From a virus (taxonomy: Duplodnaviria; Heunggongvirae; Uroviricota; Caudoviricetes; Peduoviridae), in IMG/VR virus record IMGVR_UViG_2974787870_000001: a stretch of 31,096 bases of DNA; one strand, 5' to 3'. This document shows, piece by piece, positions 1 through 31,096 of the stretch. The notes under the pieces were generated by a model. It was not told the DNA's origin. It did no database searches and saw only the letters and a list, made by a program, of their open reading frames with translations. Within the stretch, counting starts at the first letter, position 1, and each line of letters begins with the position of its first letter. Made by a program: the position numbers and the translations under genes.

Positions 1-2286
1 ATGGCCGTTAAAGCCTCCGGGCGTTTTGTCCCTCCGTCAGCATTTGCCGCAGGCACCGGTAAGGCGTTTACCGGTGCTTATGCATGGAACGCGCCACGCG
101 AGGCTGTCGGGCGCGAAAGACCCCTTACACGTGACGAGATGCGTCAGGTGCAAGGTGTTTTATCCACGATTAACCGCCTGCCTTACTTTTTGCGCTCGCT
201 GTTTACTTCACGCTATGACTACATCCGGCGCAATAAAAGCCCGGTGCACGGGTTTTATTTCCTCACATCCACTTTTCAGCGTCGTTTATGGCCGCGCATT
301 GAGCGTGTGAATCAGCGCCATGAAATGAACACCGACGCGTCGTTACTGTTTCTGGCAGAGCGTGACCACTATGCGCGCCTGCCGGGAATGAATGACAAGG
401 AGCTGAAAAAGTTTGCTGCCCGTATCTCATCGCAGCTTTTCATGATGTATGAGGAACTCAGCGATGCCTGGGTGGATGCGCATGGCGAAAAAGAATCGCT
501 GTTTACGGATGAGGCGCAGGCTCACCTCTATGGTCATGTTGCTGGCGCTGCACGTGCTTTCAATATTTCCCCTCTCTACTGGAAAAAATACCGTAAAGGA
601 CAGATAACCACGAGGCAGGCATATTCTGCCATTGCCCGTCTGTTTAACGATGAGTGGTGGACTCATCAGCTTAAAGGCCAGCGTATGCGCTGGCATGAGG
701 CGTTACTGATTGCTGTCGGGGAGGTCAATAAAGACCGTTCTCCTTATGCCAGTAAACATGCCATTCGTGATGTGCGTGCGCGCCGCCAGGCAAATCTGGA
801 ATTTCTTAAATCGTGTGACCTCGAAAACAGGGAAACCGGCGAGCGCATCGACCTTATCAGTAAGGTGATGGGCAGTATTTCTAATCCTGAAATTCGCCGG
901 ATGGAGCTGATGAACACCATTGCCGGTATTGAGCGTTACGCCGCCGCAGAAGGTGATGTGGGGATGTTTATCACGCTGACCGCGCCGTCAAAGTATCACC
1001 CGACTCGTCAGGTTGGAAAAGGCGAAAGTAAAACCGTTCAGCTTAATCACGGCTGGAATGATGAGGCATTTAATCCAAAGGATGCGCAGCGTTATCTCTG
1101 CCGTATCTGGAGCCTGATGCGCACGGCATTCAAGGATAATGATTTACAGGTCTACGGTTTGCGAGTCGTCGAGCCACACCACGACGGAACGCCGCACTGG
1201 CATATGATGCTTTTTTGTAATCCACGCCAGCGTAACCAAATTATCGAAATCATGCGTCGCTATGCGCTCAAAGAGGATGGCGACGAAAGAGGAGCCGCGC
1301 GAAACCGTTTTCAGGCAAAACACCTTAACCGGGGCGGTGCTGCGGGATATATCGCGAAATACATTTCAAAAAATATCGACGGATATGCACTGGATGGTCA
1401 GCTCGATAACGATACCGGCAGACCGCTGAAAGACACTGCCGCGGCTGTTACCGCATGGGCGTCAACGTGGCGCATCCCGCAATTTAAAACGGTTGGTCTG
1501 CCGACAATGGGGGCTTACCGTGAACTACGCAAATTGCCGCGCGGCGTCAGCATTGCTGATGAGTTTGACGAGCGCGTCGAGGCTGCACGCGCCGCCGCAG
1601 ACAGTGGTGATTTTGCGCTGTATATCAGCGCGCAGGGTGGGGCAAATGTCCCGCGCGATTGTCAGACTGTCAGGGTCGCCCGTAGTCCGTCGGATGAAGT
1701 TAACGAGTACGAGGAAGAAGTCGAGAGAGTGGTCGGCATTTACGCGCCGCATCTCGGCGCGCGTCATATTCATATCACCAGAACGACGGACTGGCGCATT
1801 GTTCCGAAAGTGCCGGTCGTTGAGCCTTTGACTTTAAAAAGCGGCATCGCCGCGCCTCGGAGTCCTGTCAATAACTGTGGAAAGCTCACCGGTGGTGATA
1901 CTTCGTTACCGGCTCCCACGCCTTCTGAGCACGCCGCAGCAGTGCTTAATCTGGTTGATGACGGTGTTATCGAATGGAATGACCCGGAGGTCGTGAGGGC
2001 GCTCAGGGGCGCATTAAAACACGACCGGAGAACGCCAAACCGTCAGCAAAGAAACGGAAGCCCGTTAAAACCGCATGAAATTGCACCATCGGCCAGACTG
2101 ACCCGGTCTGAACGATTGCAAATCACCCGTATCCGCGTTGACCTTGCTCAGAACGGTATCAGGCCGCAGCGATGGGAGCTTGAGGCGCTGGTGCGTGGCG
2201 CGACCGTAAATTATGACGGGAAAAAATTCACGTATCCGGTCGCTGATGAGTGGCCGGGATTCTCAACAGTAATGGAGTGGACATGA
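1..2286 (+). CDS. A: Replication initiation protein GpA (rolling-circle HUH endonuclease)
   Basis: 761-aa ORF; HUH-type motif 'PHWHMMLF' and paired-tyrosine motif 'YIAKYISK'; N-terminus and length match my recollection of P2 GpA. Confidence 0.93.
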   Translation: MAVKASGRFVPPSAFAAGTGKAFTGAYAWNAPREAVGRERPLTRDEMRQVQGVLSTINRLPYFLRSLFTSRYDYIRRNKSPVHGFYFLTSTFQRRLWPRIERVNQRHEMNTDASLLFLAERDHYARLPGMNDKELKKFAARISSQLFMMYEELSDAWVDAHGEKESLFTDEAQAHLYGHVAGAARAFNISPLYWKKYRKGQITTRQAYSAIARLFNDEWWTHQLKGQRMRWHEALLIAVGEVNKDRSPYASKHAIRDVRARRQANLEFLKSCDLENRETGERIDLISKVMGSISNPEIRRMELMNTIAGIERYAAAEGDVGMFITLTAPSKYHPTRQVGKGESKTVQLNHGWNDEAFNPKDAQRYLCRIWSLMRTAFKDNDLQVYGLRVVEPHHDGTPHWHMMLFCNPRQRNQIIEIMRRYALKEDGDERGAARNRFQAKHLNRGGAAGYIAKYISKNIDGYALDGQLDNDTGRPLKDTAAAVTAWASTWRIPQFKTVGLPTMGAYRELRKLPRGVSIADEFDERVEAARAAADSGDFALYISAQGGANVPRDCQTVRVARSPSDEVNEYEEEVERVVGIYAPHLGARHIHITRTTDWRIVPKVPVVEPLTLKSGIAAPRSPVNNCGKLTGGDTSLPAPTPSEHAAAVLNLVDDGVIEWNDPEVVRALRGALKHDRRTPNRQQRNGSPLKPHEIAPSARLTRSERLQITRIRVDLAQNGIRPQRWELEALVRGATVNYDGKKFTYPVADEWPGFSTVMEWT
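1851..1875 (+). promoter_or_regulatory. Candidate ori nick site inside gene A (cgcgcctcggagtcctgtcaataac)
   Basis: In P2 the origin lies within the A coding sequence and is nicked by GpA; this stretch matches my recollection of the published nick-site sequence. Recalled, not computed. Confidence 0.45.
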
Positions 2287-2738
2287 TGGCAAAAATTCAC
2301 GAGGTAAAGCTGCACGCAAAATATTTTGACCTTGTGCTGGAAGGAAAGAAACGCGCAGAGTTTCGGAAAAATGACCGTAATTATGAGCGCGGGGACACGT
2401 TGATTTTGCATGAATGGGTGCAGGGTGTGTATACGGGGCGAAAGGTTGAAGCCCGGATAACAGATGTTACTGACCTGTCAGACTGGCTGGAAGATTATGT
2501 CTTGCTAAGTATTGAGCTGCTTAATACAGGCGCATATGAGATTGTGAACTGGAAAGAACTTAGTGAGCGTGGTCTGGTATTCAGAATTAATCATGAAATT
2601 ATGCATCAGCTCGGCCTTGCTGTTATGTATGCACCAGAGACGGGGATGTCTGGCGGGGCAATGGTTGCCACGGATGGAGCATGGAACTATTCAGATGAAC
2701 AGATTGAGCGTGCACAGCAAAACGGGTGGCTTGGATAA
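2283..2738 (+). CDS. Hypothetical protein, N-terminal ASCH/PUA-like (DUF3850-like) domain
   Basis: ATG at 2283 overlaps the A stop (ATGA); 151 aa; N-terminal 'KIHEVKLHAKYFDLVLEGKKRAEFRKNDRNYERGDTLILHEW' resembles small ASCH-fold proteins; C-terminal half unassigned. Confidence 0.6.
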   Translation: MMAKIHEVKLHAKYFDLVLEGKKRAEFRKNDRNYERGDTLILHEWVQGVYTGRKVEARITDVTDLSDWLEDYVLLSIELLNTGAYEIVNWKELSERGLVFRINHEIMHQLGLAVMYAPETGMSGGAMVATDGAWNYSDEQIERAQQNGWLG

Positions 2739-2944
2739 TGCACAGAATACCAGGCGAGATACCGCACCATAAAACTAAAAATATCAAGCTGATGGCTATT
2801 GTTCAGCGTTTACAGCGGATTATGGTCAACGAAAATCTGACGCCTGACGAGCTGGTCGGGTGTGCCGAAATAGTCCGGGATAATTACGGGCGGCTTAATT
2901 ATATCCGTCAGTCCAGAGTTGCTCCACCGCCACGCAGACTATAG
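2738..2944 (+). CDS. Small hypothetical protein (68 aa)
   Basis: ATG at 2738 overlaps the upstream stop (TAATG), suggesting translational coupling; no recognisable motif. Confidence 0.4.
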   Translation: MHRIPGEIPHHKTKNIKLMAIVQRLQRIMVNENLTPDELVGCAEIVRDNYGRLNYIRQSRVAPPPRRL

Positions 2945-3118
2945 AAAACGCCGTCAGTCTTGAAACTTGTTTTCAGGGCTGGCGGGGTTGAACAACGAGC
3001 ATCGCGAGGCGTTAGTGGTATTGGAACCAATGAGAAAACAAAAAACTCAACGCCTCCCCTCATGTTTGATGGTATGGTCTTGTTTTTAGGTAATGAAGCT
3101 TTATTCGGGTGACGTGCC

Positions 3119-3124
3119 TAATAT
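3119..3124 (+). promoter_or_regulatory. Candidate -10 element (TAATAT) for the AT-rich cargo gene
   Basis: Near-consensus -10 hexamer about 36 nt upstream of the 3160 start; no convincing -35. Confidence 0.25.
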
Positions 3125-3159
3125 AGCTTTCTGCATGACGTTAGAATGATGATGAGATC

Positions 3160-3762
3160 ATGTTATTAATGAATGAGAAAAAAAGACAAAAATATCTAAA
3201 GATAATGTTTGAATGTCAAAAGCGACTTGAAACACTTCATGCTTTATCATCTGGAAGGATTGATGGCATTTATTTTCAAGTGTTAATTGAAATGGAGGCG
3301 TTGCAGCTTAGGAAGCTACTAGAGCTCATTGCATTTTCATCTCTAATTTCACATGAAAAAGCATACGAGAAGGTTACAAAGAAGATTGATGGTGTATGGA
3401 AGGCGAAGAATATATTTAAAGAGTTGGAAAAGATAAACCCTAACTTTTATCCAGTACCAATATCAGGAGTAACCAAAACGGGCTGGACGAAACTAACGGG
3501 AGGTTTTTTGACGAAAAAACAGTTTATCAAGCTATATGATGAATGCTCAAAACATATTCACGTAAGGAACCCATATCGGGTTAGGGAAAACTCGCTGGGG
3601 TTTCATAAAAAAGTTCCAGAGTATTTATCAAGAATTGAAACTCTACTGTTAAAGCACATTGTTTCTCTTGCCGGGAATGAAGAACTTCTTCTTGTAGATG
3701 TGCCTCATTATGAAGACTCTGTAACAGCTATAAAAATGAGCCACCTCGTTAAAATGGGGTGA
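3160..3762 (+). CDS. AT-rich cargo ORF of unknown function (200 aa) in the tin/old slot; candidate defence or exclusion protein
   Basis: Uninterrupted 200-aa ORF; visibly far more AT-rich than the flanking phage genes; sits between A and cos where P2 carries tin and old; followed by its own hairpin. Confidence 0.65.
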   Translation: MLLMNEKKRQKYLKIMFECQKRLETLHALSSGRIDGIYFQVLIEMEALQLRKLLELIAFSSLISHEKAYEKVTKKIDGVWKAKNIFKELEKINPNFYPVPISGVTKTGWTKLTGGFLTKKQFIKLYDECSKHIHVRNPYRVRENSLGFHKKVPEYLSRIETLLLKHIVSLAGNEELLLVDVPHYEDSVTAIKMSHLVKMG

Positions 3763-3798
3763 AAAATAAGCAATAAATAGTCGATTCTAGTGAACGGT

Positions 3799-3822
3799 CG
3801 GCTATTTTTAGCCGGATTTTTA
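3799..3822 (+). terminator. Weak intrinsic terminator after the 200-aa cargo ORF
   Basis: CGGCT-ATTTTT-AGCCG hairpin followed by a T-rich tract (GATTTTTAT). Confidence 0.4.
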
Positions 3823-3980
3823 TACTGTTTCCCCTTAATTACAGTCGTTTCTATTCATGCATGTGCTATTGCATCGAATTGCATGCGTTTTCATCCCCTG
3901 TTGCTTATGAGCGTTGTCAGTGCTGGCGCATTCTCGGTATGTTCATGCAACTGCATTAAAATCGCCCCATGAAGCGGGCG

Positions 3981-3999
3981 GGCGAGGCGGGGAAAGCAC
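3981..3999. other. cos: cos site core (19-nt cohesive-end sequence GGCGAGGCGGGGAAAGCAC)
   Basis: Sequence read directly; matches my recollection of the P2/186 19-nt cohesive end; lies in a GC-rich noncoding stretch next to the 3' end of Q, as in P2. Confidence 0.75.
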
Positions 4000-4141
4000 T
4001 GCGCGCTGGCGGTGGTGCTGATTTTATTTTTTCAGCGTCTCAGCGCGTCGTAATGGCGTTTAGATTGTGCGCCGGGGCGCTGGTGTGTCTGCGGGCTGTT
4101 TTGTGCGGTGGTGAGTGTGTGAGGGCGTGATGACGGGGTGT

Positions 4142-4163
4142 AAAAAAGCCGCCCGCAGGCGGC
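4142..4163 (-). terminator. Intrinsic terminator downstream of Q
   Basis: On the minus strand: GCCGCC-TGCG-GGCGGC hairpin followed by TTTTTT, just past the Q stop. Confidence 0.6.
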
Positions 4164-4168
4164 GATGT

Positions 4169-5203
4169 TCAGCCGTTGTCTGTGTCCAGTGAGTAGTTTT
4201 TAAAGCGGATGACCTCCTGACCGAGCCAGCCGTTTATTTCCCGAATCCTGTCCTGTAACGGGATAAGCTCATTGCGGACAAAGACCTTTGCCACTTTCTC
4301 AATATCACCCAGCGACCCGACGTTCTCCGGCTTGCCTCCCATCAACTGAAAGGGGATGCGGTGCGCGTCCAGCAGGTCAGCGGCGCTGGCTTTTTTGATA
4401 TTAAAAAAATCGTCCTTCGTTGCCACTTCACTGAGCGGGATAATTTTAATGCCGTCAGCTTTCCCCTGCGGGGCATAGAGAAACAGATTTTTAAAGTTGT
4501 TGCGGCCTTTCGATTTAACCATGTTTTCGCGAAGCATTTCGATATCGTTGCGATCCTGCACGGCATCGGTAACGTACATGATGTATCCGGCATGCGCGCC
4601 GTTTTCGTAATACTTGCGGCGGAACAGCGTGGCTGACTCATTCAGCCAGGCAGAGTTAAGGGCGCTGAGATATTCCGGCAGGCCGTACAGCTCCTGATTA
4701 ATATCCGGCTCCAGCAGGTGAAACACGGAGCCGGGCGCGAAGGCTGTCGGCTCGTTGAAGGACGGCACCCACCAGTAAACATCCTCTTCCACGCCACGGC
4801 GGGTATATTTTGCCGGTGAGGTTTCCAGTCTGATGACCTTACCGGTGGTGCTGTATCGCTTTTCCAGAAACGCATTACCGAACACCAGAAAATCCAGCAC
4901 AAAGCGGCTGAAATCCTGCTGGGAAAGCCACGGGTGCGGGATAAACGTTGAAGCCAGAATATTACGTTTGACGTAAATCGGTGAGCTGTGATGCACGGCA
5001 GCACGCAGGCTTTTTGCCAGACCGGTAAAGCTGACCGGTGGCTCATACCATCTGCCGTTACTGATGCACTCAACGTAATCCAGAATGTCACGGCGGTCGA
5101 GTACCGGCACCGGCTCGCCAAAGGTGAATGCTTCCATTTTCGGGGCGCTGGCGGTGATTGTTTTTGCCGCAGGTCGCGGTGTTTTCCCTTTTTTCTTGCT
5201 CAT
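4169..5203 (-). CDS. Q: Portal (capsid vertex) protein GpQ
   Basis: 344-aa ORF; position next to cos and overlap (ATGA) with the terminase gene; length matches P2 Q. Confidence 0.9.
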   Translation of the reverse strand: MSKKKGKTPRPAAKTITASAPKMEAFTFGEPVPVLDRRDILDYVECISNGRWYEPPVSFTGLAKSLRAAVHHSSPIYVKRNILASTFIPHPWLSQQDFSRFVLDFLVFGNAFLEKRYSTTGKVIRLETSPAKYTRRGVEEDVYWWVPSFNEPTAFAPGSVFHLLEPDINQELYGLPEYLSALNSAWLNESATLFRRKYYENGAHAGYIMYVTDAVQDRNDIEMLRENMVKSKGRNNFKNLFLYAPQGKADGIKIIPLSEVATKDDFFNIKKASAADLLDAHRIPFQLMGGKPENVGSLGDIEKVAKVFVRNELIPLQDRIREINGWLGQEVIRFKNYSLDTDNG

Positions 5204-6975
5204 CAGTAAAACTCCAGAATGGTGGATGTCAGCGGGGTGCTGATACCGGCGGTGAGTGGCTCATTTAACAGGGCGTGCATGGTCGCCCAGGCGAGGTCGG
5301 CGTGGCTGGCTTCCTCGCTGCGGCTGGCCTCATAGGTGGCGCTGCGTCCGCTGCTGGTCATGGTCTTGCGGATAGCCATAAACGAGCTGGTGATGTCGGT
5401 GGCGCTGACGTCATATTCCAGACAGCCACGGCGGATAACGTCTTTTGCCTTGAGCACCATTGCGGTTTTCATTTCCGGTGTGTAGCGGATATCGCGCGCG
5501 GCGGGATAGAACGAGCGCACGAGCTGGAACACGCCGACACCGAGGCCGGTGGCATCAATACCGATGTATTCGACGTTGTATTTTTCGGTGAGTTTGCGGA
5601 TGGATTCCGCCTGAGTGGCAAAGTCCATGCCTTTCCACTGGTGACGCTCAAGTATTCTGAATTTGCCACCGGCCACCACCGGCGGTGCCAGCACCACGCA
5701 TCCGGCGCTGTCGCCACGGTGTGACGGGTCGTAACCAATCCATACCGGGCGGGAGCCGAACGGATTGGCGGCAAACGGCGCATAGTCTTCCCATTCTTCC
5801 AGCGTGTCGACCATGCAGCGTTGCAGCTCCTCGAACGGGAACACCGACGCCTTGTCGTCCACAAATTCACACATGAACAGGTTTTTAAAATCGTCGGCGC
5901 TGTTTTCACGTTTGAGCTGCTCAATGTCGAACAGCGTGCAGCCGCCTTTCAGGGCATCCTCAATGGTGACAATCTGCCGCCACTGGCCGTCCGCACAGAG
6001 AAGCCCACCGGCAAGGGCGTTATGACTGACGTCGATTTCCACGCGTTCAGCGGCGCTGGCGCGTCCCCGGTTAAACAGTTCACCCGACCAGAACGGGTAG
6101 GCGTCGTGCGCCAGCGTGGACGGGGTGGAGAAATAGGTCGAGCGCAGGTGACTCTGTGAGGCCATACCTGATGCCACCTTACGCAGTACCTGAAAATTCG
6201 GGATCCAGAAAATCTCATCGACGTACAGGTCGCCGTTATGGCTCTGTGCGGTGTTGGAGTTGGTGCCGAGAAAAATCAGTTTTGCACCGTTATTGCCCAG
6301 GACAATCGGGTCACCGGTCAGGTCAACGTCAACCAGCCGGGCAAAGGCGATGATGTATTCGCGGAACACATACGCCTGCGTTTTACTGGCCGACAGAAAA
6401 ATCTGGTTATGACCGGTTTTCAGGGCGCGCAGCAGCGCCTCGCGGGAAAAATAAAACGTCGCGCCAATCTGGCGGGATTTCAGGATATCGCGGATGCGGT
6501 GCTCAAGCCCGGCGCGATACCAGTGCAACTGATAGTCGAAAGACTGCTCAAAGAAAATCTGCTCCAGCTTTTCGATGGCCTCGTCACTGAAAAAATTCTT
6601 TTTCGGTTTGCGCCGTCCGCCTTTGTTACGGTTAGCGACGTTCGGATTAAGGTCTGCCTCGTTGCCGGTCTGGCTGTAGCGGTTGACCCGTGCCAGTCGT
6701 TCAATCTGGCGTCCCAGCAGGTCAATTTCCTTGAAGTCACCGCCGGTTTTCTGTGGTTTGATGATGAGCTGGGTCAGCCGCGCTTCCAGACTCATTTCGA
6801 CACGGCTGATGGGGGCAACGCTGTCCCAGCCGTCGCGCTGTTTCCAGCTCTGCACTGTCGGGCGTTTCATCTGCAACATGGCGGCAATCTGCGGCACGGA
6901 AAACCCCTGCCAGTACAGCAGCGCCGCCTGACGACGCGGGTCGTGTAAAAGAGTGGTGTCTGTGGTGATGGTCAT
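5203..6975 (-). CDS. P: Terminase large (ATPase) subunit GpP
   Basis: Long minus-strand ORF; start taken at the internal Met 'MTITTDTTLLHDP' (590 aa) rather than the ORF-track start at 7005; divergent from O as in P2. Confidence 0.88.
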   Translation of the reverse strand: MTITTDTTLLHDPRRQAALLYWQGFSVPQIAAMLQMKRPTVQSWKQRDGWDSVAPISRVEMSLEARLTQLIIKPQKTGGDFKEIDLLGRQIERLARVNRYSQTGNEADLNPNVANRNKGGRRKPKKNFFSDEAIEKLEQIFFEQSFDYQLHWYRAGLEHRIRDILKSRQIGATFYFSREALLRALKTGHNQIFLSASKTQAYVFREYIIAFARLVDVDLTGDPIVLGNNGAKLIFLGTNSNTAQSHNGDLYVDEIFWIPNFQVLRKVASGMASQSHLRSTYFSTPSTLAHDAYPFWSGELFNRGRASAAERVEIDVSHNALAGGLLCADGQWRQIVTIEDALKGGCTLFDIEQLKRENSADDFKNLFMCEFVDDKASVFPFEELQRCMVDTLEEWEDYAPFAANPFGSRPVWIGYDPSHRGDSAGCVVLAPPVVAGGKFRILERHQWKGMDFATQAESIRKLTEKYNVEYIGIDATGLGVGVFQLVRSFYPAARDIRYTPEMKTAMVLKAKDVIRRGCLEYDVSATDITSSFMAIRKTMTSSGRSATYEASRSEEASHADLAWATMHALLNEPLTAGISTPLTSTILEFY

Positions 6976-9138: not shown

Positions 9139-9882
9139 ATGACGAGTCCCGCACAGCGCCACATGATGCGGGTCTCGGCAGCGATGACCGCGCAGCGGGA
9201 AGCCGCCCCGCTGCGACATGCAACTGTCTATGAGCAGATGCTGGTCAAGCTGGCCGCAGACCAGCGCACACTGAAAGCGATTTATTCAAAAGAGCTTAAG
9301 GCCGCGAAAAAACGCGAACTGCTGCCGTTCTGGTTGCCGTGGGTGAACGGCGTGCTGGAGCAGGGCAAAGGTGCACAGGATGACATTCTGATGACGGTCA
9401 TGCTGTGGCGTCTGGATACCGGCGATATTGCCGGTGCGCTGGAGATTGCCCGTTATGCCCTGAAGTACGGTCTGACCATGCCGGGTAAACACCGACGCAC
9501 CCCGCCGTACATGTTCACCGAGGAGGTGGCGCTCGCGGCCATGCGCGCTCACGCTGCCGGTGAGTCTGTGGATACCCGCCTGCTGACGGAGACCCTTGAA
9601 CTGACCGCCACGGCTGACATGCCTGATGAAGTGCGCGCAAAGCTGCACAAAATCACCGGTCTGTTTCTGCGTGACGCTGGTGATGCCGCAGGTGCGCTGG
9701 CGCACCTGCAACGTGCGACACAGCTCGACTGTCAGGCAGGCGTCAAAAAAGAGATTGAACGACTGGAGCGGGAACTGAAACCGAAGCCGGAGCCACAGCC
9801 AAAAGCGGCCACCCGCGCCCCGCGTAAGACCCGGAGTGCGACACCGGCAAAACGTGGACGCCCGAAAAAGAAAGCCAGTTAA
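9139..9882 (+). CDS. M: Terminase small (endonuclease) subunit GpM
   Basis: 247-aa ORF immediately after N; basic C-terminal tail; synteny with P2 M. Confidence 0.88.
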   Translation: MTSPAQRHMMRVSAAMTAQREAAPLRHATVYEQMLVKLAADQRTLKAIYSKELKAAKKRELLPFWLPWVNGVLEQGKGAQDDILMTVMLWRLDTGDIAGALEIARYALKYGLTMPGKHRRTPPYMFTEEVALAAMRAHAAGESVDTRLLTETLELTATADMPDEVRAKLHKITGLFLRDAGDAAGALAHLQRATQLDCQAGVKKEIERLERELKPKPEPQPKAATRAPRKTRSATPAKRGRPKKKAS

Positions 9883-13350: not shown

Positions 13351-13368
13351 TGTGCCATTCCCGACACC
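13351..13368 (+). promoter_or_regulatory. Candidate late promoter element upstream of V (TGT-N12-ACC)
   Basis: Partial dyad in the 66-bp S-V intergenic region. Confidence 0.3.
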
Positions 13369-13415
13369 TCATCGTCACATTGCCGCCGGTATGACCCGGC
13401 GGCATCCTTCCCGTT

Positions 13416-15841: not shown

Positions 15842-18577
15842 ATGAGCACGAAATTTAAAACCGTTATCACTACTGCCGGAGCCGCAAAGCTGGCAGCCGC
15901 CACTGTCCCCGGCGGGAAAAAAGTAACCCTGTCTGCAATGGCCGTGGGTGACGGTAATGGCAAATTGCCGGTGCCGGATGCCGGTCAGACGAAACTGGTG
16001 CATGAGGTCTGGCGTCACGCTCTGAATAAAGTCAGCGTGGATAACAAGAATAAAAACTATATCGTGGCTGAACTGGTTGTACCGCCCGAAGTGGGCGGAT
16101 TCTGGATGCGTGAGCTTGGTCTGTATGACGATGCCGGAACACTGATTGCGGTCGCCAACATGGCAGAAAGCTATAAGCCTGAACTCGCTGAAGGCTCCGG
16201 GCGTGCGCAGACCTGCCGCATGGTTATTATTGTCAGTAACGTGGCGTCCGTTGAGCTGAGTATTGATGCCAGCACAGTGATGGCGACGCAGGATTACGTC
16301 GATGACAAAATCGCAGAACATGAGCAGTCCCGCCGCCATCCTGACGCCACGCTGACAGAAAAAGGTTTTACCCAGTTAAGCAGCGCAACAAACAGCACCA
16401 GTGAAAAACTGGCGGCAACGCCAAAAGCGGTCAAGGCTGCGAATGACAACGCAAATTCACGTCTGGCGAAAAATCAGAACGGTGCAGATATCCAGGATAA
16501 ATCAGCTTTTCTGGACAATGTTGGCGTTACCAGCCTGACGTTTATGAAAAACAACGGCGAAATGCCGGTTGATGCTGATCTGAATACATTTGGTCCAGTT
16601 AAGGCTTATCTGGGGATCTGGTCTAAAGCTACCTCAACTAACGCAACACTGGAGAAAAATTTCCCGGAAGATAATGCTGTCGGTGTGCTTGAGGTTTTTG
16701 CTGCCGGCAATTTTGCAGGCACGCAACGCTTTATCACGAGAGACGGCAATGTATACATGCGTAAACTCGCCAATAAGTGGAATGGTACTGATGGTCCATG
16801 GGGCGTATGGCGTCACACTCAATCAGCTACCCGCCCTTTGAGTACGACTATAGACCTGAATACGCTTGGAGCCGCCGAACATCTTGGTTTATGGCGTAAC
16901 AGTAGCTCGGCTATAGCTTCATATGAACGCAATTATCCAGAGGAAGGCGGCTTTGCTCAAGGGACGCTTGAGATCCTCGAAGGCGGGAATTATGGAAGAA
17001 CGCAACGTTATACCACTCGCCGTGGAAATATGTACGTCCGCTGCCTTGCGGCAAGCTGGGATGCATCAAATCCGCAGTGGGAACCGTGGTTAAGAGTCGG
17101 TCATCAGTCAGAGAGTCGTTATTACGAAGGTGATTTAAATGTTCTAACCGACCCCGGTATTTACAGTGTTACAGGAAAGGCAACAAACGGTCCGATGCTG
17201 GACACCGTTGGCGCGACACTACTTGGGATACTGGAAGTAATCAGACGTTTTGATGGTGTGTCTGTCTGGCAGCGTTACACAACCACAGGGAAATCAGAAA
17301 CCACACAGGGACGCACTTTTGAGCGCGTCTACGCCGGGAGCAAATGGACCGAATGGCGAGAAGTATATAACTCCTTTTCGTTGCCTCTGAATCTGGGCAT
17401 CGGTGGCGCAGTGGCAAAACTATCCATTCTGGACTGGCAGACCTACGATTTTGTGCCGGGCAGTCTGATAACCGTTCGGCTTGATAATATGACCAACATT
17501 CCCGACGGTATGGACTGGGGCGTCATTGATGGCAACCTGATAAACATCGCAGTTGGTCCGAGTGATGATTCCGGTACGGGGCGCTCAATGCATGTATGGC
17601 GCAGCACTGTAAGTAAAGCCAACTACCGCTTTTTTATGGTGCGCATTTCAGGAAATCCGGGAAGCCGCACGATCACAACAAGACGAGTACCAATCATTGA
17701 CGAAGCCCAGACATGGGGCGCGAAACAGACATTCAGTGCTGGCCTTTCTGGTGAACTGTCCGGCAATGCGGCGACAGCAACAAAGCTGAAAACAGCCCGT
17801 AAAATTAATAACGTTTCGTTTGATGGAACATCAGATATTAACCTGACGCCGAAAAATATTGGTGCATTTGCTTCAGGAAAAACAGGAGACACCGTTGCGA
17901 ATGATAAAGCCGTTGGATGGAACTGGAGTAGCGGAGCCTATAACGCAACTATTGGTGGGGCATCAACGTTAATTCTTCATTTTAATATCGGTGAAGGAAG
18001 TTGTCCCGCCGCCCAGTTTCGCGTTAATTATAAGAACGGTGGTATTTTTTATCGTTCTGCTCGTGACGGTTACGGATTCGAGGCTGACTGGTCTGAGTTT
18101 TATACCACAACGCGAAAACCTACAGCGGGAGATGTCGGTGCACTGCCGTTATCTGGTGGTCAATTGAATGGTGCTCTGGGTATAGGAACATCCAGTGCTC
18201 TTGGCGGTAATTCGATTGTTTTGGGTGATAATGACACGGGCTTTAAACAAAATGGTGATGGTAATCTGGATGTTTATGCTAATAGCGTCCATGTTATGCG
18301 CTTTGTCTCCGGAAGCGTTCAAAGTAATAAAACCATAAATATTACGGGGCGTGTTAATCCCTCGGATTACGGTAACTTTGATTCCCGCTATGTGAGAGAT
18401 GTCAGACTTGGCACACGTGTTGTCCAGACCATGCAGAAAGGGGTGATGTATGAGAAAGCAGGGCACGTAATTACCGGGCTTGGTATTGTCGGTGAAGTCG
18501 ATGGTGATGACCCCGCAGTATTCAGACCAATACAAAAATACATCAATGGCACATGGTATAACGTCGCACAGGTGTAA
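15842..18577 (+). CDS. H: Tail fibre protein GpH (conserved N-terminus, mosaic C-terminus with three tandem domain repeats)
   Basis: 911 aa; N-terminus 'MSTKFKTVITTAGAAKLAAA' as I recall for P2 H; GC drops in the distal half. Confidence 0.9.
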   Translation: MSTKFKTVITTAGAAKLAAATVPGGKKVTLSAMAVGDGNGKLPVPDAGQTKLVHEVWRHALNKVSVDNKNKNYIVAELVVPPEVGGFWMRELGLYDDAGTLIAVANMAESYKPELAEGSGRAQTCRMVIIVSNVASVELSIDASTVMATQDYVDDKIAEHEQSRRHPDATLTEKGFTQLSSATNSTSEKLAATPKAVKAANDNANSRLAKNQNGADIQDKSAFLDNVGVTSLTFMKNNGEMPVDADLNTFGPVKAYLGIWSKATSTNATLEKNFPEDNAVGVLEVFAAGNFAGTQRFITRDGNVYMRKLANKWNGTDGPWGVWRHTQSATRPLSTTIDLNTLGAAEHLGLWRNSSSAIASYERNYPEEGGFAQGTLEILEGGNYGRTQRYTTRRGNMYVRCLAASWDASNPQWEPWLRVGHQSESRYYEGDLNVLTDPGIYSVTGKATNGPMLDTVGATLLGILEVIRRFDGVSVWQRYTTTGKSETTQGRTFERVYAGSKWTEWREVYNSFSLPLNLGIGGAVAKLSILDWQTYDFVPGSLITVRLDNMTNIPDGMDWGVIDGNLINIAVGPSDDSGTGRSMHVWRSTVSKANYRFFMVRISGNPGSRTITTRRVPIIDEAQTWGAKQTFSAGLSGELSGNAATATKLKTARKINNVSFDGTSDINLTPKNIGAFASGKTGDTVANDKAVGWNWSSGAYNATIGGASTLILHFNIGEGSCPAAQFRVNYKNGGIFYRSARDGYGFEADWSEFYTTTRKPTAGDVGALPLSGGQLNGALGIGTSSALGGNSIVLGDNDTGFKQNGDGNLDVYANSVHVMRFVSGSVQSNKTINITGRVNPSDYGNFDSRYVRDVRLGTRVVQTMQKGVMYEKAGHVITGLGIVGEVDGDDPAVFRPIQKYINGTWYNVAQV

Positions 18578-19108: not shown

Positions 19109-19326
19109 GTTGTATGAGCTCTGGTGGGAGCTTACATATCTATGGCACAGAGTAAAGCCTAATCTGACAGTCCGCTCTGTGCTAGGAGCGGACATTGTTG
19201 CCATCTATCTGCATAAATCTGTGGGGAGCTGCTCACTTGTGGGGAATGAGTCCTCAACTGTTTGCGTTTATAAACACAATCCTTTAGATTTTCTCCTACT
19301 ATCTACTAAAATTTTATCTAGTGAAA

Positions 19327-20448
19327 ATGCCCAATAATCATATGTATGCAAGTCTACTGTCTTACAAAAACTTAAAGATGGCACATCAAGGAAGTAACTT
19401 ACGGTCTATTACTGAGTTTTCTCTCTATTCAGATAGTCAACCAATTGGGGCGGTTGATGATGATTCAGTTTATTGTTTTCTGAATATGCTACCCAGGATA
19501 ACCAAACAATCCACCGTTGCATCTTCAATTACAGTGCGCACAAAGTGGTATAGTGACTTAAATAATATGATTCTTTCTAGTTCTCAGAGTCATACAAAGG
19601 ATTATCATGGTGGATGGTATAATGATGAAATAGCTGCGCTTTCAAGTTTACTGCTTGGTGTCCGTTTTCATGCTGGGTCAATTACTCGTCACTATGATTA
19701 CTACACAGGTGATTTCGGAAGGATCCAAGCGGAGAGTTCTTTTCCTCCCGTTTTAGAGTTTAAACATAACAAACCTATAGTTCCTAATGCTATCAAAGAA
19801 ATTGATATAACTAACCTTAAAGAGCTTAACAATTTACATCTCTTAAGTGAAAAGAATTTCAACCATTTAATTAGAGCAGCCAGAAGCTATCAAAATGCAT
19901 TATGGATATGCGAGTCATCTCCAAATATGAGTTGGCTATTGATGGTGTCAGCCCTAGAATGTGCGGCTAATCAATGGGCAAAATCCAATGCGTCTAAAGA
20001 AGAAAGATTTAAACATGCCAAGCCTGAATTATATGAAAAATTAGATACCAATGAATTTAGACATTTAATCTCTATTATTGCTAATGAGTTTAAAGATTCA
20101 TTTGGGGCGACAAAGAAGTTTGTGGATTTCTGCCTGTATTTCCTTCCAGATGAACCTCAAGTGAGGCCAAAAGTAGGAAGAATTGATTGGGGAAAAGAAT
20201 CGCTATCAACAACTTTTAAAAAAATATATAACTACCGTTCTAAGGCATTGCATGGAGGACAACCATTTCCTGAGCCGATGTGTTCCTATCCTGAAGTATG
20301 GGATGGGTATATTGCTGAACGAGCGAGAGCATGTTCAACCTTAGGTGGAACGTGGTTGAATGAAGATGTGCCAATTAATTTAAATACATTCAACTTTATG
20401 ACCCATTCCATTTTGAATAAGTGGTGGCAATCTTTATTACCAAGTTAA
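19327..20448 (+). CDS. AT-rich cargo ORF of unknown function (about 373 aa) in the Z/fun slot; candidate defence or abortive-infection protein
   Basis: Long ORF in a strongly AT-rich island between G and FI; start uncertain (GTG 19321, ATG 19327, 19344 or 19378; none has a clear ribosome-binding site); Rx4H motif (RSKALH) near the C-terminus; perfect hairpin at its stop. Confidence 0.65.
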   Translation: MPNNHMYASLLSYKNLKMAHQGSNLRSITEFSLYSDSQPIGAVDDDSVYCFLNMLPRITKQSTVASSITVRTKWYSDLNNMILSSSQSHTKDYHGGWYNDEIAALSSLLLGVRFHAGSITRHYDYYTGDFGRIQAESSFPPVLEFKHNKPIVPNAIKEIDITNLKELNNLHLLSEKNFNHLIRAARSYQNALWICESSPNMSWLLMVSALECAANQWAKSNASKEERFKHAKPELYEKLDTNEFRHLISIIANEFKDSFGATKKFVDFCLYFLPDEPQVRPKVGRIDWGKESLSTTFKKIYNYRSKALHGGQPFPEPMCSYPEVWDGYIAERARACSTLGGTWLNEDVPINLNTFNFMTHSILNKWWQSLLPS

Positions 20449-20470
20449 CACTGTAAGTATCAGTGTTAAC
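20444..20470 (+). terminator. Perfect 10-bp inverted repeat (GTTAACACTG-N7-CAGTGTTAAC) at the end of the cargo ORF
   Basis: Read directly; overlaps the stop codon; AT-rich downstream, so terminator function is plausible but unproven. Confidence 0.4.
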
Positions 20471-20600
20471 TGCACCATGTAATTTTATATCTGTACCAGA
20501 CTGGAGGAAAATGTTCGCTTATCGCCCATTAGGGTCAACCATACTCAAATCTCTCACATTGCAGGAGATTTGAGTATGAACACGTCACCGTGGAAGGACT

Positions 20601-22928: not shown

Positions 22929-25368
22929 CAATGTAAAATTACAGGTATTGCTCAGGGCTGTTGACCAGGCATCCCGCCCGTTTAAATCCATCCGTACAGC
23001 GAGCAAATCGCTGTCGGGGGATATCCGGGAAACACAAAAATCACTGCGCGAGCTGAACGGTCACGCATCCCGTATTGAGGGATTCCGCAAGACCAGTGCA
23101 CAGCTCGCCGTGACTGGTCATGCACTTGAAAAGGCACGGCAGGAAGCCGAAGCCCTTGCCACACAGTTTAAAAACACCGAACGTCCGACCCGTGCTCAGG
23201 CGAAAGTGCTGGAATCCGCAAAGCGTGCGGCGGAGGACTTACAGGCGAAATATAACCGCCTGACGGATTCCGTTAAACGCCAGCAACGGGAACTGGCCGT
23301 TGTGGGAATTAATACCCGCAATTTTGCACATGATGAGCAGGGACTGAAAAACCGTATCAGTGAAACCACCGCACAACTTAACCGTCAGCGTGACGCGCTG
23401 GCGCGTGTCAGTGCGCAACAGGCAAAACTTAACGCAGTAAAACAGCGTTATCAGGCCGGAAAGGAACTGGCCGGAAATATGGCCTCGGTAGGCGCTGCCG
23501 GTGTGGGGATTGCGGCGGCGGGAACGATGGCCGGAGTTAAGCTGCTGATGCCCGGTTATGAGTTTGCGCAGAAAAACTCAGAATTGCAGGCCGTGCTAGG
23601 AGTGGCAAAAGACTCCGCCGAAATGGCCGCGCTACGCAAACAGGCGCGCCAGCTCGGCGACAACACAGCCGCCTCGGCGGATGATGCAGCAGCAGCTCAA
23701 ATCATCGTGGCTAAATCAGGAGCGGATAAAAATGGCATCTTGGCACAAACACCGGCCATTTTGAATATGTCACTGGCAAACAAGAAAACGATGGAGGAAA
23801 ACGCCACTTTACTTATTGGGACAAAATCGGCATTCGGGCTTGCTGATGATAAGGCTTCCCATATTGCTGATGTTATTTCAATGACGATGAATAAATCGCA
23901 AGCCACATTCGAGGGACTAAGTGATTCACTTACCTATGTCGGGCCAGTGGCAAAAGATGCAGGTGTCAGCTTGGAAGAAACAGCAGCAATGTTAGGTGCA
24001 TTACACGATGCAAATATCAGTGGGTCTATGGCTGGCACAGGAAGTCGAGCAGTACTGAGTCGTTTGCAGGCACCAACCGGGAAAGCGTATGACGCTATTA
24101 AAGAGCTTGGCGTAAAGACAACTGACAGCAAAGGTAATACGCGACCTGTCTTTTCAATTCTGAAAGAAATTCAGCGGAGTTTTGAAAAAAATAAACTAGG
24201 AACAGGGCAGCGCGCTGAATACATGAAAACAATATTCGGCGAAGAGGCCAGCTCATCAGCAAGTGTATTAATGACAGCAGCAGCCAGCGGCAAGCTGGAT
24301 AATCTGACCAGGTTGATTAAAGAATCTGACGGTAAAACAGAAGAACTGGTTAAGGTTATGCAGGACAACCTCGGCGGTGACTTTAAGGAGTTTCAGTCCG
24401 CTTATGAGGCGGTGGGGACTGACCTGTTTGACCAGCAGGAAGGCGCACTGCGTAAGCTCACGCAGACGGCCACAAAGTATGTGTTAAAACTCGACGGCTG
24501 GATCCAGAAAAACAAATCACTGGCGTCAACCATCGGCATCATTGCCGGTGGCGCGCTGGCGCTGACTGGCATCATCGGTGCCATTGGTCTTGTCGCCTGG
24601 CCGGTTATCACCGGCATCAATGCCATCATCGCGGCAGCAGGCGCAATGGGGGCAATCTTCACGACGGTTGGCAGTGCCGTTATGACGGCCATCGGGGCGA
24701 TTAGCTGGCCGGTTGTGGCCGTGGTGGCCGCCATTGTCGCCGGGGCGTTGCTTATCCGTAAATACTGGGAGCCTGTCAGCGCATTCTTTGGCGGTGTGGT
24801 TGAAGGGCTGAAAGCGGCATTTGCGCCGGTGGGGGAACTGTTCACGCCACTTAAACCGGTTTTTGACTGGCTGGGGGAAAGGTTACAGGCCGCGTGGCAG
24901 TGGTTTAAAAATCTGATTGCCCCGGTCAAAGCCACCCAGGACACCCTGAACCGTTGCCGTGACACGGGCGTCATGTTCGGGCAGGCACTGGCTGACGCGC
25001 TGATGCTGCCGCTTAATGCGTTCAACAAACTGCGCAGTGGTATTGACTGGGTACTGGAAAAACTCGGTGTTATCAACAAAGAGTCAGACACACTTGACCA
25101 GACCGCCGCAAGGACTAATGCCGCCACGTATGGCACCGGTGGTTATATTCCGGCGACCAGCTCTTATGCAGGCTATCAGGCTTATCAGCCGGTTACGGCA
25201 CCGGCTGGCCGCTCTTATGTGGACCAGAGTAAAAACGAATATCACATCAACCTGACGGGTGGTACTGCGCCGGGGACACAGCTTGACCGCCAGTTACAGG
25301 ATGCGCTCGAAAAATACGAGCGGGATAAACGTGCGCGCGCCCGTGCCAGCATGATGCATGACGGTTAA
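22921..25368 (+). CDS. T: Tail tape measure protein GpT
   Basis: 815 aa, coiled-coil N-terminus and Gly/Ala-rich hydrophobic segment; synteny. Confidence 0.92.
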   Translation: MSNNVKLQVLLRAVDQASRPFKSIRTASKSLSGDIRETQKSLRELNGHASRIEGFRKTSAQLAVTGHALEKARQEAEALATQFKNTERPTRAQAKVLESAKRAAEDLQAKYNRLTDSVKRQQRELAVVGINTRNFAHDEQGLKNRISETTAQLNRQRDALARVSAQQAKLNAVKQRYQAGKELAGNMASVGAAGVGIAAAGTMAGVKLLMPGYEFAQKNSELQAVLGVAKDSAEMAALRKQARQLGDNTAASADDAAAAQIIVAKSGADKNGILAQTPAILNMSLANKKTMEENATLLIGTKSAFGLADDKASHIADVISMTMNKSQATFEGLSDSLTYVGPVAKDAGVSLEETAAMLGALHDANISGSMAGTGSRAVLSRLQAPTGKAYDAIKELGVKTTDSKGNTRPVFSILKEIQRSFEKNKLGTGQRAEYMKTIFGEEASSSASVLMTAAASGKLDNLTRLIKESDGKTEELVKVMQDNLGGDFKEFQSAYEAVGTDLFDQQEGALRKLTQTATKYVLKLDGWIQKNKSLASTIGIIAGGALALTGIIGAIGLVAWPVITGINAIIAAAGAMGAIFTTVGSAVMTAIGAISWPVVAVVAAIVAGALLIRKYWEPVSAFFGGVVEGLKAAFAPVGELFTPLKPVFDWLGERLQAAWQWFKNLIAPVKATQDTLNRCRDTGVMFGQALADALMLPLNAFNKLRSGIDWVLEKLGVINKESDTLDQTAARTNAATYGTGGYIPATSSYAGYQAYQPVTAPAGRSYVDQSKNEYHINLTGGTAPGTQLDRQLQDALEKYERDKRARARASMMHDG

Positions 25369-25382
25369 GGAGGTGACGAAAA

Positions 25383-25862
25383 ATGATGCTCGCGTTAGGT
25401 ATGTTTGTTTTTATGCGCCAGACGCTGCCACACCAGACCATGCAGCGTGAATCAGATTATCGCTGGCCGTCAAATTCCCGTATCGGTAAACGGGATGCCT
25501 TTCAGTTTCTCGGTGTTGGCGAGGAAAACATCACGCTTGCCGGTGTGCTTTATCCCGAACTGACCGGCGGCAAGCTGACGATGACCACGCTCAGACTGAT
25601 GGCAGAGGAAGGCCGGGCGTGGCCGTTGCTGGATGGCACCGGCATGATTTACGGTATGTATGTCATCAGCAAGGTGAGTGAAACAGGGAGTATTTTCTTT
25701 GCAGACGGCACACCCCGGAAAATTGATTTTACGCTGTCGCTCACCCGCGTTGATGAATCACTGGCCGCGCTTTATGGCGATATCGGTAAACAGGCGGAGT
25801 CGCTCATCGGTAAGGCCGGCAGTCTGGCGACCAGATTCACAGGTATGATGGGGGCGGGATAA
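25383..25862 (+). CDS. U: Tail protein GpU
   Basis: 159-aa ORF; synteny. Confidence 0.85.
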   Translation: MMLALGMFVFMRQTLPHQTMQRESDYRWPSNSRIGKRDAFQFLGVGEENITLAGVLYPELTGGKLTMTTLRLMAEEGRAWPLLDGTGMIYGMYVISKVSETGSIFFADGTPRKIDFTLSLTRVDESLAALYGDIGKQAESLIGKAGSLATRFTGMMGAG

Positions 25863-27025: not shown

Positions 27026-27106
27026 TGTAATTTATTTATCTGTTTGTTTTATAAGGATAAATTAACTAAAATGGCACCATCAACAAAACCGGAAGAGGTG
27101 CTCGCG

Positions 27107-27325
27107 ATGTTTCATTGTCCTTTATGCCAGCATGCCGCACATGCGCGTACAAGCCGCTATATCACTGACACGACAAAAGAGCGTTATCACCAGTGTCAGA
27201 ACGTGAATTGCAGCGCCACATTCATCACTTATGAGTCGGTACAGCGATACATCGTGAAGCCGGGAGAAGTCCACGCCGTAAGACCGCACCCGTTGCCGTC
27301 AGGGCAGCAAATTATGTGGATGTGA
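27107..27325 (+). CDS. ogr: Late-gene transcriptional activator Ogr (zinc finger)
   Basis: Start at 'MFHCPLCQHAAHAR' with a GGAAGAGG ribosome-binding site upstream; four-cysteine arrangement (C-x2-C ... C-x4-C); 72 aa. Confidence 0.9.
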   Translation: MFHCPLCQHAAHARTSRYITDTTKERYHQCQNVNCSATFITYESVQRYIVKPGEVHAVRPHPLPSGQQIMWM

Positions 27326-27335
27326 TCACAAAAAT

Positions 27336-27360
27336 AGCCCCTCAGTCGAGGGGCTTATTT
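27336..27360 (+). terminator. Intrinsic terminator after ogr
   Basis: AGCCCCTC-AGTC-GAGGGGCT hairpin followed by TATTTAT. Confidence 0.65.
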
Positions 27361-27598
27361 ATGGTCGATGTGGACGCTATGTGGACAGTGGTTGACATAA
27401 ATCCATTTATATCATCAGGTTAGGTGCTTTTTTGTGACACCATCCCTGTCTTCCCCCACATGATGTGGGGGTTTTTTTTATCAATTACTTACATGCAATC
27501 AAAAGTAAAAACAGGTACTTATCGAAAGCTGTAAGGGTTTGGAGCGGTTTCAAAATTTCTTGCGTGTGGACACTATGTGGACACTCAGAGGGGGAAAT
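27361..27598. other. attP: attP region with two pairs of direct TGTGGAC arm-type repeats
   Basis: ATGTGGAC at about 27368..27375 and 27380..27387; TGTGGACAC at about 27565..27573 and 27576..27584; pairs flank about 180 bp lying between ogr and the 3' end of int. Confidence 0.6.
27453..27479 (+). terminator. Strong hairpin plus T8 inside attP (CCCCCACA-TGA-TGTGGGGG-TTTTTTTT)
   Basis: Read directly; may be the 3' end of a host gene carried in the attP core to rebuild it after integration. Confidence 0.55.
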
Positions 27599-28609
27599 TT
27601 ATAACGTCACTCCGCCTTTTAGTGGATTCAGAGCGACGGCATTTTGCAGATAGTCAGGCGCAAGGTGCGCATAGGCCATCGTCTGCTGAATGCTCGCATG
27701 TCCCAGAATCTGTTGCAGTGCGATTATATTGCCCCCATTCATCATGAAATGGCTTGCGAATGTATGCCGCAGGATGTGGGTTGCCTGATTGGGTGGTATA
27801 TCAGGTTTCACTCTGCGTAAAATCCCGCAAAATTTCTCATAATCAACTTTGAATAATTTGGCGCTGGCCTCCTCTTTAACTTTTTTCTCCAGTTCCTCAG
27901 AAATCGGCACGGTTCGCTTTTTACCGTTTTTGGTTTTCAGGAAGGTAACCCTGCAATTTGTAATCTGTGCTGGTTTTAGCGTGGCAACTTCCGTCCATCT
28001 TCCTCCAGTGCTCAGACATAAAAGCGCGACAAGTAAGTCATCACCAGCCAAAACATTTAACAGTTTTTCGATTTCTGCTTTTTCCAGGAACGTCATTTCA
28101 GGGTTGGCCTCCGCCAGTGGCGGCAGTCCGTGAATTGGGTGTTGCCCGGAAAATTCATCCAATTGAATTAATTTTGTGAACATGCCGGATAATCGGTACA
28201 TGTCACGGTTTATCGTTGCGGCACTGATACCATCACGTAGTCGCATGGAACGATAATCCATCAAAGCCCTTTTGCTCATCCTGCTCACTGGTATATCACC
28301 TATGCTGCTGATGGTTTTGAGTAGATGATTAAACTCTTTTGTTCCATGCTCGTGGTTTTGCCCGTGATATTTCCACCAGATGTCCAGCAACTCACTCAAA
28401 GTCCGGCGGTCTGCTCGCTGGCCTCCCCATTCTTTCTGACTGGCATTGGCGATTGTGTATCGCTCAAAGGCTAGTGCTTCAGCTTTTCTTTCGAATTTCC
28501 TGCGGATGCGTTTTCCGTCGCGACCGCGAGGTCTAATGTCCACTTCATAGCGACCATCATCGAGCTTCTTAATTGCCATAAGAAAGCCCTCCGGCGCTGT
28601 ATTCACCAT
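27599..28609 (-). CDS. int: Tyrosine integrase
   Basis: 336-aa minus-strand ORF with a C-terminal 'HILRHTFASHF...LGHASIQQTMAYAHL' catalytic region; true start is probably the internal Met 'MAIKKLDDGRYEVD' near 28579. Confidence 0.9.
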   Translation of the reverse strand: MVNTAPEGFLMAIKKLDDGRYEVDIRPRGRDGKRIRRKFERKAEALAFERYTIANASQKEWGGQRADRRTLSELLDIWWKYHGQNHEHGTKEFNHLLKTISSIGDIPVSRMSKRALMDYRSMRLRDGISAATINRDMYRLSGMFTKLIQLDEFSGQHPIHGLPPLAEANPEMTFLEKAEIEKLLNVLAGDDLLVALLCLSTGGRWTEVATLKPAQITNCRVTFLKTKNGKKRTVPISEELEKKVKEEASAKLFKVDYEKFCGILRRVKPDIPPNQATHILRHTFASHFMMNGGNIIALQQILGHASIQQTMAYAHLAPDYLQNAVALNPLKGGVTL

Positions 28610-28648
28610 CTTGGTAGCAAATGGTGAAAATGTAATCTTTATATAGAG

Positions 28649-29351: not shown

Positions 29352-29353
29352 TT

Positions 29354-30021: not shown

Positions 30022-30084
30022 GTAATTAACCAGAGTTTTTAACGCACTTAATCGTGCGGGGCTTCTTTTTGCCTGGAGAAAGTC

Positions 30085-30608: not shown

Positions 30609-30610
30609 TA

Positions 30611-30835
30611 ATGCCGGACAACGTAGATTTTATTCAGGAACAACAGGCTGAATTACTGGAGCGCCAGATTAACGCGGCAAGGGTAAAACATTGCGGTGCT
30701 TCTGCGCTGGTTTGCGAAGAGTGTGACGCGCCAATACCTGCTGCCCGTCGTGCGGCTTATCCGTCAGCCACGCGTTGTGTTTCCTGTCAGTCAGTCTTTG
30801 AAGCAAAAAACAAACATTACCGGAGAACGGCATGA
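30611..30835 (+). CDS. TraR/DksA-family C4 zinc-finger protein
   Basis: 74 aa with C-x2-C ... C-x2-C (CEECDAP...CVSCQ) preceded by a coiled-coil-like region; ribosome-binding site AAAGGAG. Confidence 0.7.
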   Translation: MPDNVDFIQEQQAELLERQINAARVKHCGASALVCEECDAPIPAARRAAYPSATRCVSCQSVFEAKNKHYRRTA

Positions 30836-31096
30836 GTATTCGTATTGAAATTGGCGAACGTTATGTCGTTACCAGTGACAGCTTTCAGTTTATTCTCCAC
30901 GAGAAAAAGAGAGCGGAAAGCGGTAAAAACGCCGGTCAGGAATGGCTGGCAGTGGTTGGTTATTACCCGAAATTAAGCCAGCTCGTTTCCGGCCTGATGC
31001 ATCACGATATTCTGACCGGAAGCGCAAAGTCTTTTGCTGATTTAAACGCACAGGTTGAGCAACTCAGCAGGCGTTGTTCAGAGGCTTTTGGCTCAT
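30832..31096 (+). CDS. Hypothetical early protein, 3' end beyond the window
   Basis: ATG overlaps the upstream stop (ATGA); open to the window end ('MSIRIEIGERYVVTSDSFQFILHEKKRAESGK...'), so absent from the ORF track. Confidence 0.5.
   Translation, partial: MSIRIEIGERYVVTSDSFQFILHEKKRAESGKNAGQEWLAVVGYYPKLSQLVSGLMHHDILTGSAKSFADLNAQVEQLSRRCSEAFGS

Follow-up and report, generated by a model that had tools for sequence, protein, structure and literature searches.

Positions 3981-3999 of the window (the whole stretch of DNA that was analyzed, 31,096 bp) carry a sequence that had been recognized as the cohesive end of a P2-type phage, and the question this raises is why such a sequence should lie inside the window and not at its ends, and what kind of molecule the window then represents. 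The reading we favor, with a probability of about 0.9, is that the sequence is the functional cos of a complete, 31,096-bp P2-like (Peduovirus) genome whose record is circular and has been cut at the start codon (ATG) of gene A, with cos coming to lie internally because the two 19-nt 5' ends are joined in a circular representation. This reading draws on the identity and position of cos, the 55-bp block in which it sits, the presence of terminase and portal genes, colinearity with P2, closure of the window ends and a single attP, all of which are documented below. The coordinates of the features are given in Table 1.

Table 1. Features of the window relevant to cos, packaging, integration and genome closure.
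Feature	Coordinates	Strand	Evidence or remarks
Replication gene A	1..2286	+	Pfam Phage_GPA, E=7e-124; window begins at its ATG
gpA-to-cos slot contents	2283..3762	+	Three ORFs: orf91-like, 72-aa and 200-aa
orf91-like DUF3850/ASCH+DUF7415 gene	2283-2738	+	
72-aa ORF	2726-2944	+	
200-aa cargo ORF	3160-3762	+	
TGCAT triad (3858, 3870, 3880)	3858..3884		Offsets recur in P2, P4, 186 and PSP3
Spacer, TGCAT triad to 55-bp block	3886..3944		Sequence variable, length nearly fixed
Conserved 55-bp cos block	3952..4006		53/55 identical to P2, 50/55 to P4, 48/55 to 186
cos cohesive-end sequence, 19 bp	3981..3999	+	Unique exact match; same as P2, fiAA91-ss and P4
Terminator-like hairpin after gene Q	4148..4163	-	Counterpart of P2 tQ; consensus scan
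Portal gene gpQ	4169..5203	-	Pfam Phage_portal; colinear with P2 Q, 97.5% nt identity
Large terminase gene gpP	5203..6975	-	Pfam Terminase_6N, Terminase_6C, Terminase_5, HTH_23
Small terminase gene gpM	9139..9882	+	Pfam Phage_term_smal, E=3e-48; colinear with P2 M
attP P arm (Int arm-type repeats), then IHF-like site	27365..27392	+	Aligns with P arm and IHF site annotated for P2
attP common core, 47 bp, single copy	27436..27482	+	Identical to 3' end of host cpxP
attP P' arm	27564..27590	+	Aligns with annotated P' arm of P2
Integrase gene	27599..28609	-	Pfam Int_N, Phage_integrase; specificity class other than that of P2 int
orf83 homologue split by window boundary	30832..31096 (+ bases 1-11)	+	ORF restored by joining the ends

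The 19-mer GGCGAGGCGGGGAAAGCAC is found once in the window, on the plus strand, and remains the sole match even when three mismatches are allowed; it was matched in none of 100 dinucleotide-preserving shuffles of the sequence, and the chance expectation is 0. P2 (NC_001895) has the identical sequence annotated as its cosL (1-19) and cosR (33575-33593), as does fiAA91-ss, and the satellite P4 (NC_001609) has it as its first 19 nt; it has also been quoted for P2-related phages in general as their 5'-protruding cohesive end (PMC3931495). When window positions 3600-4400 were searched by BLAST, base 3981 aligned with the first base of many cos-anchored phage records, including those of fiAA91-ss, Wphi, HQ103, P24A7b and R18C. 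Contiguous phage DNA lies on both sides of the 19-mer. The preliminary description of the window had placed the sequence internally with contiguous flanks, which is borne out, and it also stood up to comparison with real P2-type cos sequences, being identical to the annotated P2 cos with flanks that are conserved as well. Its attribution to a joint 'P2/186' cohesive end holds only for P2. The corresponding 19-mer of 186 and PSP3 is GGCGTGGCGGGGAAAGCAT, which differs from that of the window at 2 of the 19 positions (5 and 19), so that the window has the P2/P4 version.

Cos adjoins the portal/terminase operon (Q, P) and has the gpA-side accessory slot on its other side, a layout that has been described (PMC9122126), and the cognate terminase genes gpM and gpP are both present in the same genome as cos. 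The portal gene is annotated at the same coordinates in E. coli Ec55, and the coordinates given here for gpP also follow the Ec55 annotation (the mechanically called ORF reaches 7005); the HTH-type Terminase_5 domain of gpP is N-terminal. The hairpin following gene Q is in a region conserved with P2, where tQ is annotated at 160-181 from cos, and for the ori nick region within gene A, at about 1820-1899, comparison with the 80 bp that surround the nick site of the P2 ori gives 98.75% identity. The polarity of the nicks at cos is taken from the annotation of 186 and PSP3, in which the top strand is cut at the 5' end and the bottom strand at the 3' end, together with PMC3931495. By this analogy, cleavage in the phage of the window would occur between 3980 and 3981 on the top strand and between 3999 and 4000 on the bottom strand, giving 19-nt 5' overhangs. 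After injection, the complementary 19-nt ends would anneal and then be ligated, gpA would nick ori inside gene A, and replication would produce double-stranded circles. The terminase (gpM and gpP) would recognize cos on these circles and make the two nicks, 19 bp apart, and the DNA would be packaged through the gpQ portal. [quoted passage not shown]

When the window is re-anchored at 3981, the gene order of P2 is kept, and 79% of the sequence aligns with P2 at 86-97.5% identity, with the exception of the integrase gene, where just 186 bp align with P2 int, at 70%. Going by P2 gene order and nucleotide similarity, the window can be assigned to the genus Peduovirus. Five stretches do not align to P2: 2507-3980 (gpA-to-cos slot), 16448-18370 (C-terminal part of the tail fibre gene H), 19197-20594 (Z/fun slot), 27415-27611 (attP core region) and 27793-29352 (int-C-cox module). 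The C-terminal part of H is unrelated to that of P2, the int-C-cox module is of another immunity and integration class, and P2 orf30 is absent from the window (13352-13415). The closest phage records cover 93-94% of window positions 1-25000 at 97.5-98.1% identity, while R18C matches positions 25001-31096 at 98.7%. No record in the phage collection reaches at least 99% over the whole window.

The joining of the window ends, on which a circular interpretation depends, was confirmed by comparison with P2. The last 600 and first 600 bases of the window, placed end to end, align to P2 positions 27434-28633 over 1200 bp with 0 gaps, and after re-anchoring at cos a single P2 alignment of 4,250 bp spans the window boundary. 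Joining the ends also reunites the two parts of the orf83 homologue; the joined 276 nt specify an intact ORF of 91 aa, of which 89 are identical to P2 Orf83, and in Ec55 orf83 likewise crosses the origin of the record. A self-overlap test revealed no terminal direct repeat of 8-400 nt, or near-match to one, at the window ends, so closure was judged from the alignments to related phages and from the reunited ORF. From these comparisons, bases 31096 and 1 are neighbors, and the window amounts to precisely one unit of the genome, the opening of which falls at the ATG of gene A.

The same ATG is base 1 of the circular phage record MT374855. Starting at gene A is a database convention, and in the window it was probably produced by automated rotation of a circularized assembly to its replication gene. 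Some assemblers rotate sequences to dnaA or to repA-like genes. Several RefSeq E. coli chromosome records also have the ATG of gene A of a P2-like prophage as base 1, with orf83 lying across the origin (examples are Ec55 and SCU-316; accessions include NZ_CP059130.1, 1-5300, and NZ_CP054371.1). In these bacterial records, the chromosome start seems to have been set at the phage replication gene by automated rotation.

The preliminary description went on to conclude that the sequence represents a circular or permuted phage form, or an assembly opened at gene A, and neither an integrated prophage nor a linear genome bounded by cos. Closure and attP support this as far as the representation goes, but as to whether the molecule itself was circular, the sequence alone is compatible with linear ends that have been joined. 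It is close to an even chance that the source was linear virion DNA and that the circle is an assembly artefact, arising from annealed, ligated or end-filled cos ends, or from contaminating circular forms. Such a source competes only with physical circularity and leaves the identification of cos as it stands. Behavior of this kind has been described for cos phages, the cos of which is often placed internally by assemblers (PMC5557969, PMC5000459), and in the phage collection roughly one P2-like record in two carries cos internally. The sequence offers no evidence against virion DNA as the source, nor does it distinguish such DNA from a circle that was excised or replicating in a bacterial culture. 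The plasmid collection held no free 31-kb replicon of this type, and matched the window only over about 229 bp at cos, the matches coming from whole P2-like prophages carried in IncC plasmids. The plasmids that match the cos region are conjugative, about 200 kb in size, and come from Klebsiella, Citrobacter, Providencia, Enterobacter and E. coli. In one of them (NZ_CP021835.1, 97764-109992), the P2-like genes from B to L are present along with cos, and the gpA-to-cos slot is occupied by a reverse-transcriptase gene.

The window is very unlikely to be a single unit from a head-to-tail concatemer, or from a tandem double lysogen, and not a monomeric circle. Any unit drawn from a tandem array would likewise have cos inside it, an undivided attP and an end continuous with its start, and sequence alone cannot separate the two. 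However, the window is exactly one genome length with zero repeated bases at its ends, and its start at a codon that serves as the record origin elsewhere fits a rotated circular contig. The reported use of circular dsDNA by P2 as its packaging substrate, mentioned above (PMC5557969), argues further against a concatemer, and no tandem junction with an intact attP was found among 5,426 complete E. coli genomes.

The favored reading, that of a functional cos in a complete genome, is also supported by the sequence around the 19-mer. The term '55-bp cos region' is quoted in two publications (PMC3931495, PMC9594776), and the corresponding block of the window begins 29 bp before the top-strand nick, takes in the 19-mer and ends 7 bp beyond it. 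Within it, the window differs from P2 by two substitutions left of the nick, C to T at -19 and G to A at -12. Among 120 IMG/VR loci with the 19-mer there were 66 distinct 55-mers, with every difference falling in the left half, and the window 55-mer is one mismatch away from the commonest natural variant. An ungapped conservation profile, computed over 114 distinct loci, shows that conservation in P2-like contigs begins at about -36 and extends rightwards through the intergenic region into gene Q, whereas in P4-like contigs it is limited to about -35 to +25. The two nick sites share the sequence GCG(G/C)GC(G/A)^G, each on its own strand (top, GCGGGCG^GGCG, 3974-3984; bottom, GCGCGCA^GTGC, 3996-4006), giving a partial two-fold symmetry, and this symmetry would account for the conservation, even in P4, of the 7 bp to the right of the 19-mer.

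That the 19-mer is a chance match, or the dead remnant of a cos that no longer works, is highly improbable. A chance origin conflicts with the expectation of 0 matches given above. A dead remnant might be suspected because the left half of the block departs from P2 at two positions and because T at -19 is rare (2/120 loci), but A at -12 is the majority base (95/120), and the number of distinct 55-mers indicates that the left half varies naturally. Also intact are the TGCAT offsets described below, the genes for terminase and portal, and the P2 colinearity that extends across 79% of the window.

The motif TGCAT occurs at 3858, 3870, 3880 and 3952 of the window, i.e. at -123, -111, -101 and -29 from the top-strand nick, and P2 shows the same offsets. 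The first of these is shifted to -124 in P4 and 186 and to -120 in PSP3, the other offsets being unchanged. Among 108 distinct IMG/VR loci, TGCAT is found exactly at -29 in 103, within 1 nt either side of -111 in 84, and within 1 nt either side of -101 in 96, compared with a background of about 0.02 per 10-nt bin. In contrast to the motifs, the region between them (-95 to -37) is almost unrelated in sequence among the window, P2, P4, 186 and PSP3; over the IMG/VR loci, mean pairwise ungapped identity is 0.36 for this spacer and 0.84 for -36 to -1. Judged by its placement, the triad could possibly represent accessory terminase-binding repeats of an extended cos. Such a role would fit both the more than 1000-fold higher transduction of cosmids with longer cos flanks (PMC9594776) and the repeats and IHF site annotated around the cos of phiCTX. 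We consider it unlikely, though worth stating, that cos is bipartite, comprising the 55-bp block and the TGCAT triad about 100-125 bp to its left, with the length of the spacer and not its sequence being under constraint. If it were, the functional cos would extend from about 3853 to 4006, and this would be the real right-hand limit of the defence-gene hotspot. More speculatively, the terminase may be anchored on the side of the nicks that faces the slot, since this is where the putative accessory repeats are situated. No link between TGCAT and the P2 cos was found in the open papers searched, and the fixed-offset repeats and a bipartite cos may already have been described, for example in the primary cos paper (Ziermann & Calendar 1990). 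Repeats at fixed offsets could be of help in the design of P2/P4 cosmids and delivery particles.

The attP region lies between ogr and int, and the series ogr, P arm, core, P' arm and int is undivided in the window. An intact attP had been reported in the preliminary description, correctly so, as there is a single undivided copy with both arms, though the core is not that of P2. The 47-bp core is common to the attP, attL and attR of the prophage of E. coli N21, and the identical sequence is present just downstream of cpxP, terminator included. This downstream region is one that we take to be the CpxQ sRNA region. A search of the whole window against Rfam at gathering thresholds gave no matches, and around the attP core there were sub-threshold hits only (Hrs1, 31.8 bits against a cut-off of 56.4). 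The order of the N21 prophage is cpxP, attL, int...A, slot, cos, Q...D, ogr, attR, fieF, and integration of the phage of the window between cpxP and fieF would keep the 3' end of cpxP intact.

In phage records, the attP region is continuous. The undivided attP span of 161 bp was present in 0 of the 5,426 complete E. coli genomes, where all matches break at 27436. Four E. coli genomes in which ogr lies near int were considered as possible exceptions and rejected, as what they contain is not an intact attP but the remains of a prophage that has undergone deletion, in which truncated copies of int and D are fused. At the cpxP-fieF site, some genomes, E. coli 3PT (NZ_CM137004.1) being one, retain no more than such an int-D fusion together with ogrK. 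The remnant at this site looks like the product of an internal prophage deletion reaching from int to D.

The window has a next to negligible probability of being part of an integrated prophage, in which cos would be internal owing to a prophage map permuted relative to that of the virion, for while N21-type prophages carry cos internally between A and Q, and the region from the slot to cos is 98-99% identical to 21 E. coli chromosomes, this reading is refuted by the intact attP (the single core copy in an undivided ogr-to-int region, at which every match in the 5,426 E. coli genomes breaks) and by closure, the window ends joining into phage DNA with no bacterial flank found in the window. The internal position of cos had, along with the intact attP, been put forward as excluding a prophage, and the part of this argument that concerns cos fails, given that the cos of the N21 prophage is also internal, between gene A and Q; the exclusion follows from the intact attP and closure. 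Together, these two features make the window one complete phage genome and not a prophage fragment, and cos fixes the true ends of that genome (3981 and 3999).

The cos of the window shares with that of P2 the identical 19-nt end, 53 of the 55 bp of the block and the four TGCAT offsets, as well as its location between the gpA-side accessory slot and Q, and identity with P2 is about 97.5% through the head, lysis and tail-completion genes. The spacer (-95 to -37) is unrelated in sequence between the two, and the P2 slot holds tin and old on the minus strand, whereas that of the window holds the 200-aa ORF of unknown function on the plus strand. P4 has the identical 19-mer, 50 of the 55 bp, and the TGCAT offsets (the first at -124), and is packaged by the P2 terminase (PMC9122126), but in P4-like elements homology to the right of cos stops after +25, while in the window it continues into gene Q. 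The cos regions of 186 and PSP3 (Eganvirus) resemble that of the window in having a 19-nt 5' end, a left block of the form TGCATTAAAACCG...GGGC, TGCGCGC on the right, and TGCAT at -124 (186) or -120 (PSP3), -111, -101 and -29, and differ from it in the cohesive-end sequence itself. The Pseudomonas phage phiCTX (NC_003278) also has a cos of the P2 family, with a G+C-rich end (annotated as 21 nt) followed by TGCGCGC, but its cohesive-end sequence is different and the TGCAT triad is absent. With repeats R3-R6 and an IHF site annotated in its vicinity, the phiCTX cos provides a documented precedent for accessory repeats close to a cos of this family. The cosN and cosB sites of lambda follow a similar logic, with staggered nicks that produce 5' ends, partial two-fold symmetry and binding repeats on one side, but the ends of lambda are 12 nt long and those of P2-type phages 19 nt, lambda packages from concatemers, and there is no sequence similarity. 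As an example of a P2-type cos, the site in the window is correctly identified but ordinary and already known, and adds no new P2 cos biology.

Cos also anchors the gpA-to-cos slot, a known hotspot of anti-phage genes, and so allows the slot contents to be read correctly. It had been proposed that cos delimits the slot occupied in P2 by tin and old, and this agrees with the published gpA-gpQ hotspot next to cos (PMC9122126, PMC13586616); the gene arrangement in the slot of the window is already listed in the hotspot catalogue (PMC9122126, supplement). Homology to most relatives stops near 3016 and restarts near 3938-3947, and if the TGCAT triad belongs to cos, the variable part of the slot would be about 3017-3852. 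The full slot is present in 21 of the 5,426 E. coli genomes. The 200-aa ORF is a member of a small protein family comprising about 44 clusters, found in Gammaproteobacteria and without a named domain. It matches phrog_13799 only, with nothing significant in PADLOC, Pfam, NCBIfam or PDB sequences. Its AlphaFold model (pLDDT 85) weakly resembles a HEPN-toxin-like helical bundle, with no obvious R-x4-6-H motif, and its distant homologues in Marinobacter and Pseudomonas are solitary genes amid housekeeping genes. Searches of Pfam, PHROGs, PADLOC, NCBIfam and PDB sequences also returned no match for a 375-aa ORF at 19321-20448 (plus strand), which has a GTG start and occupies the Z/fun slot, between the tail-fibre assembly gene G and the sheath gene FI.
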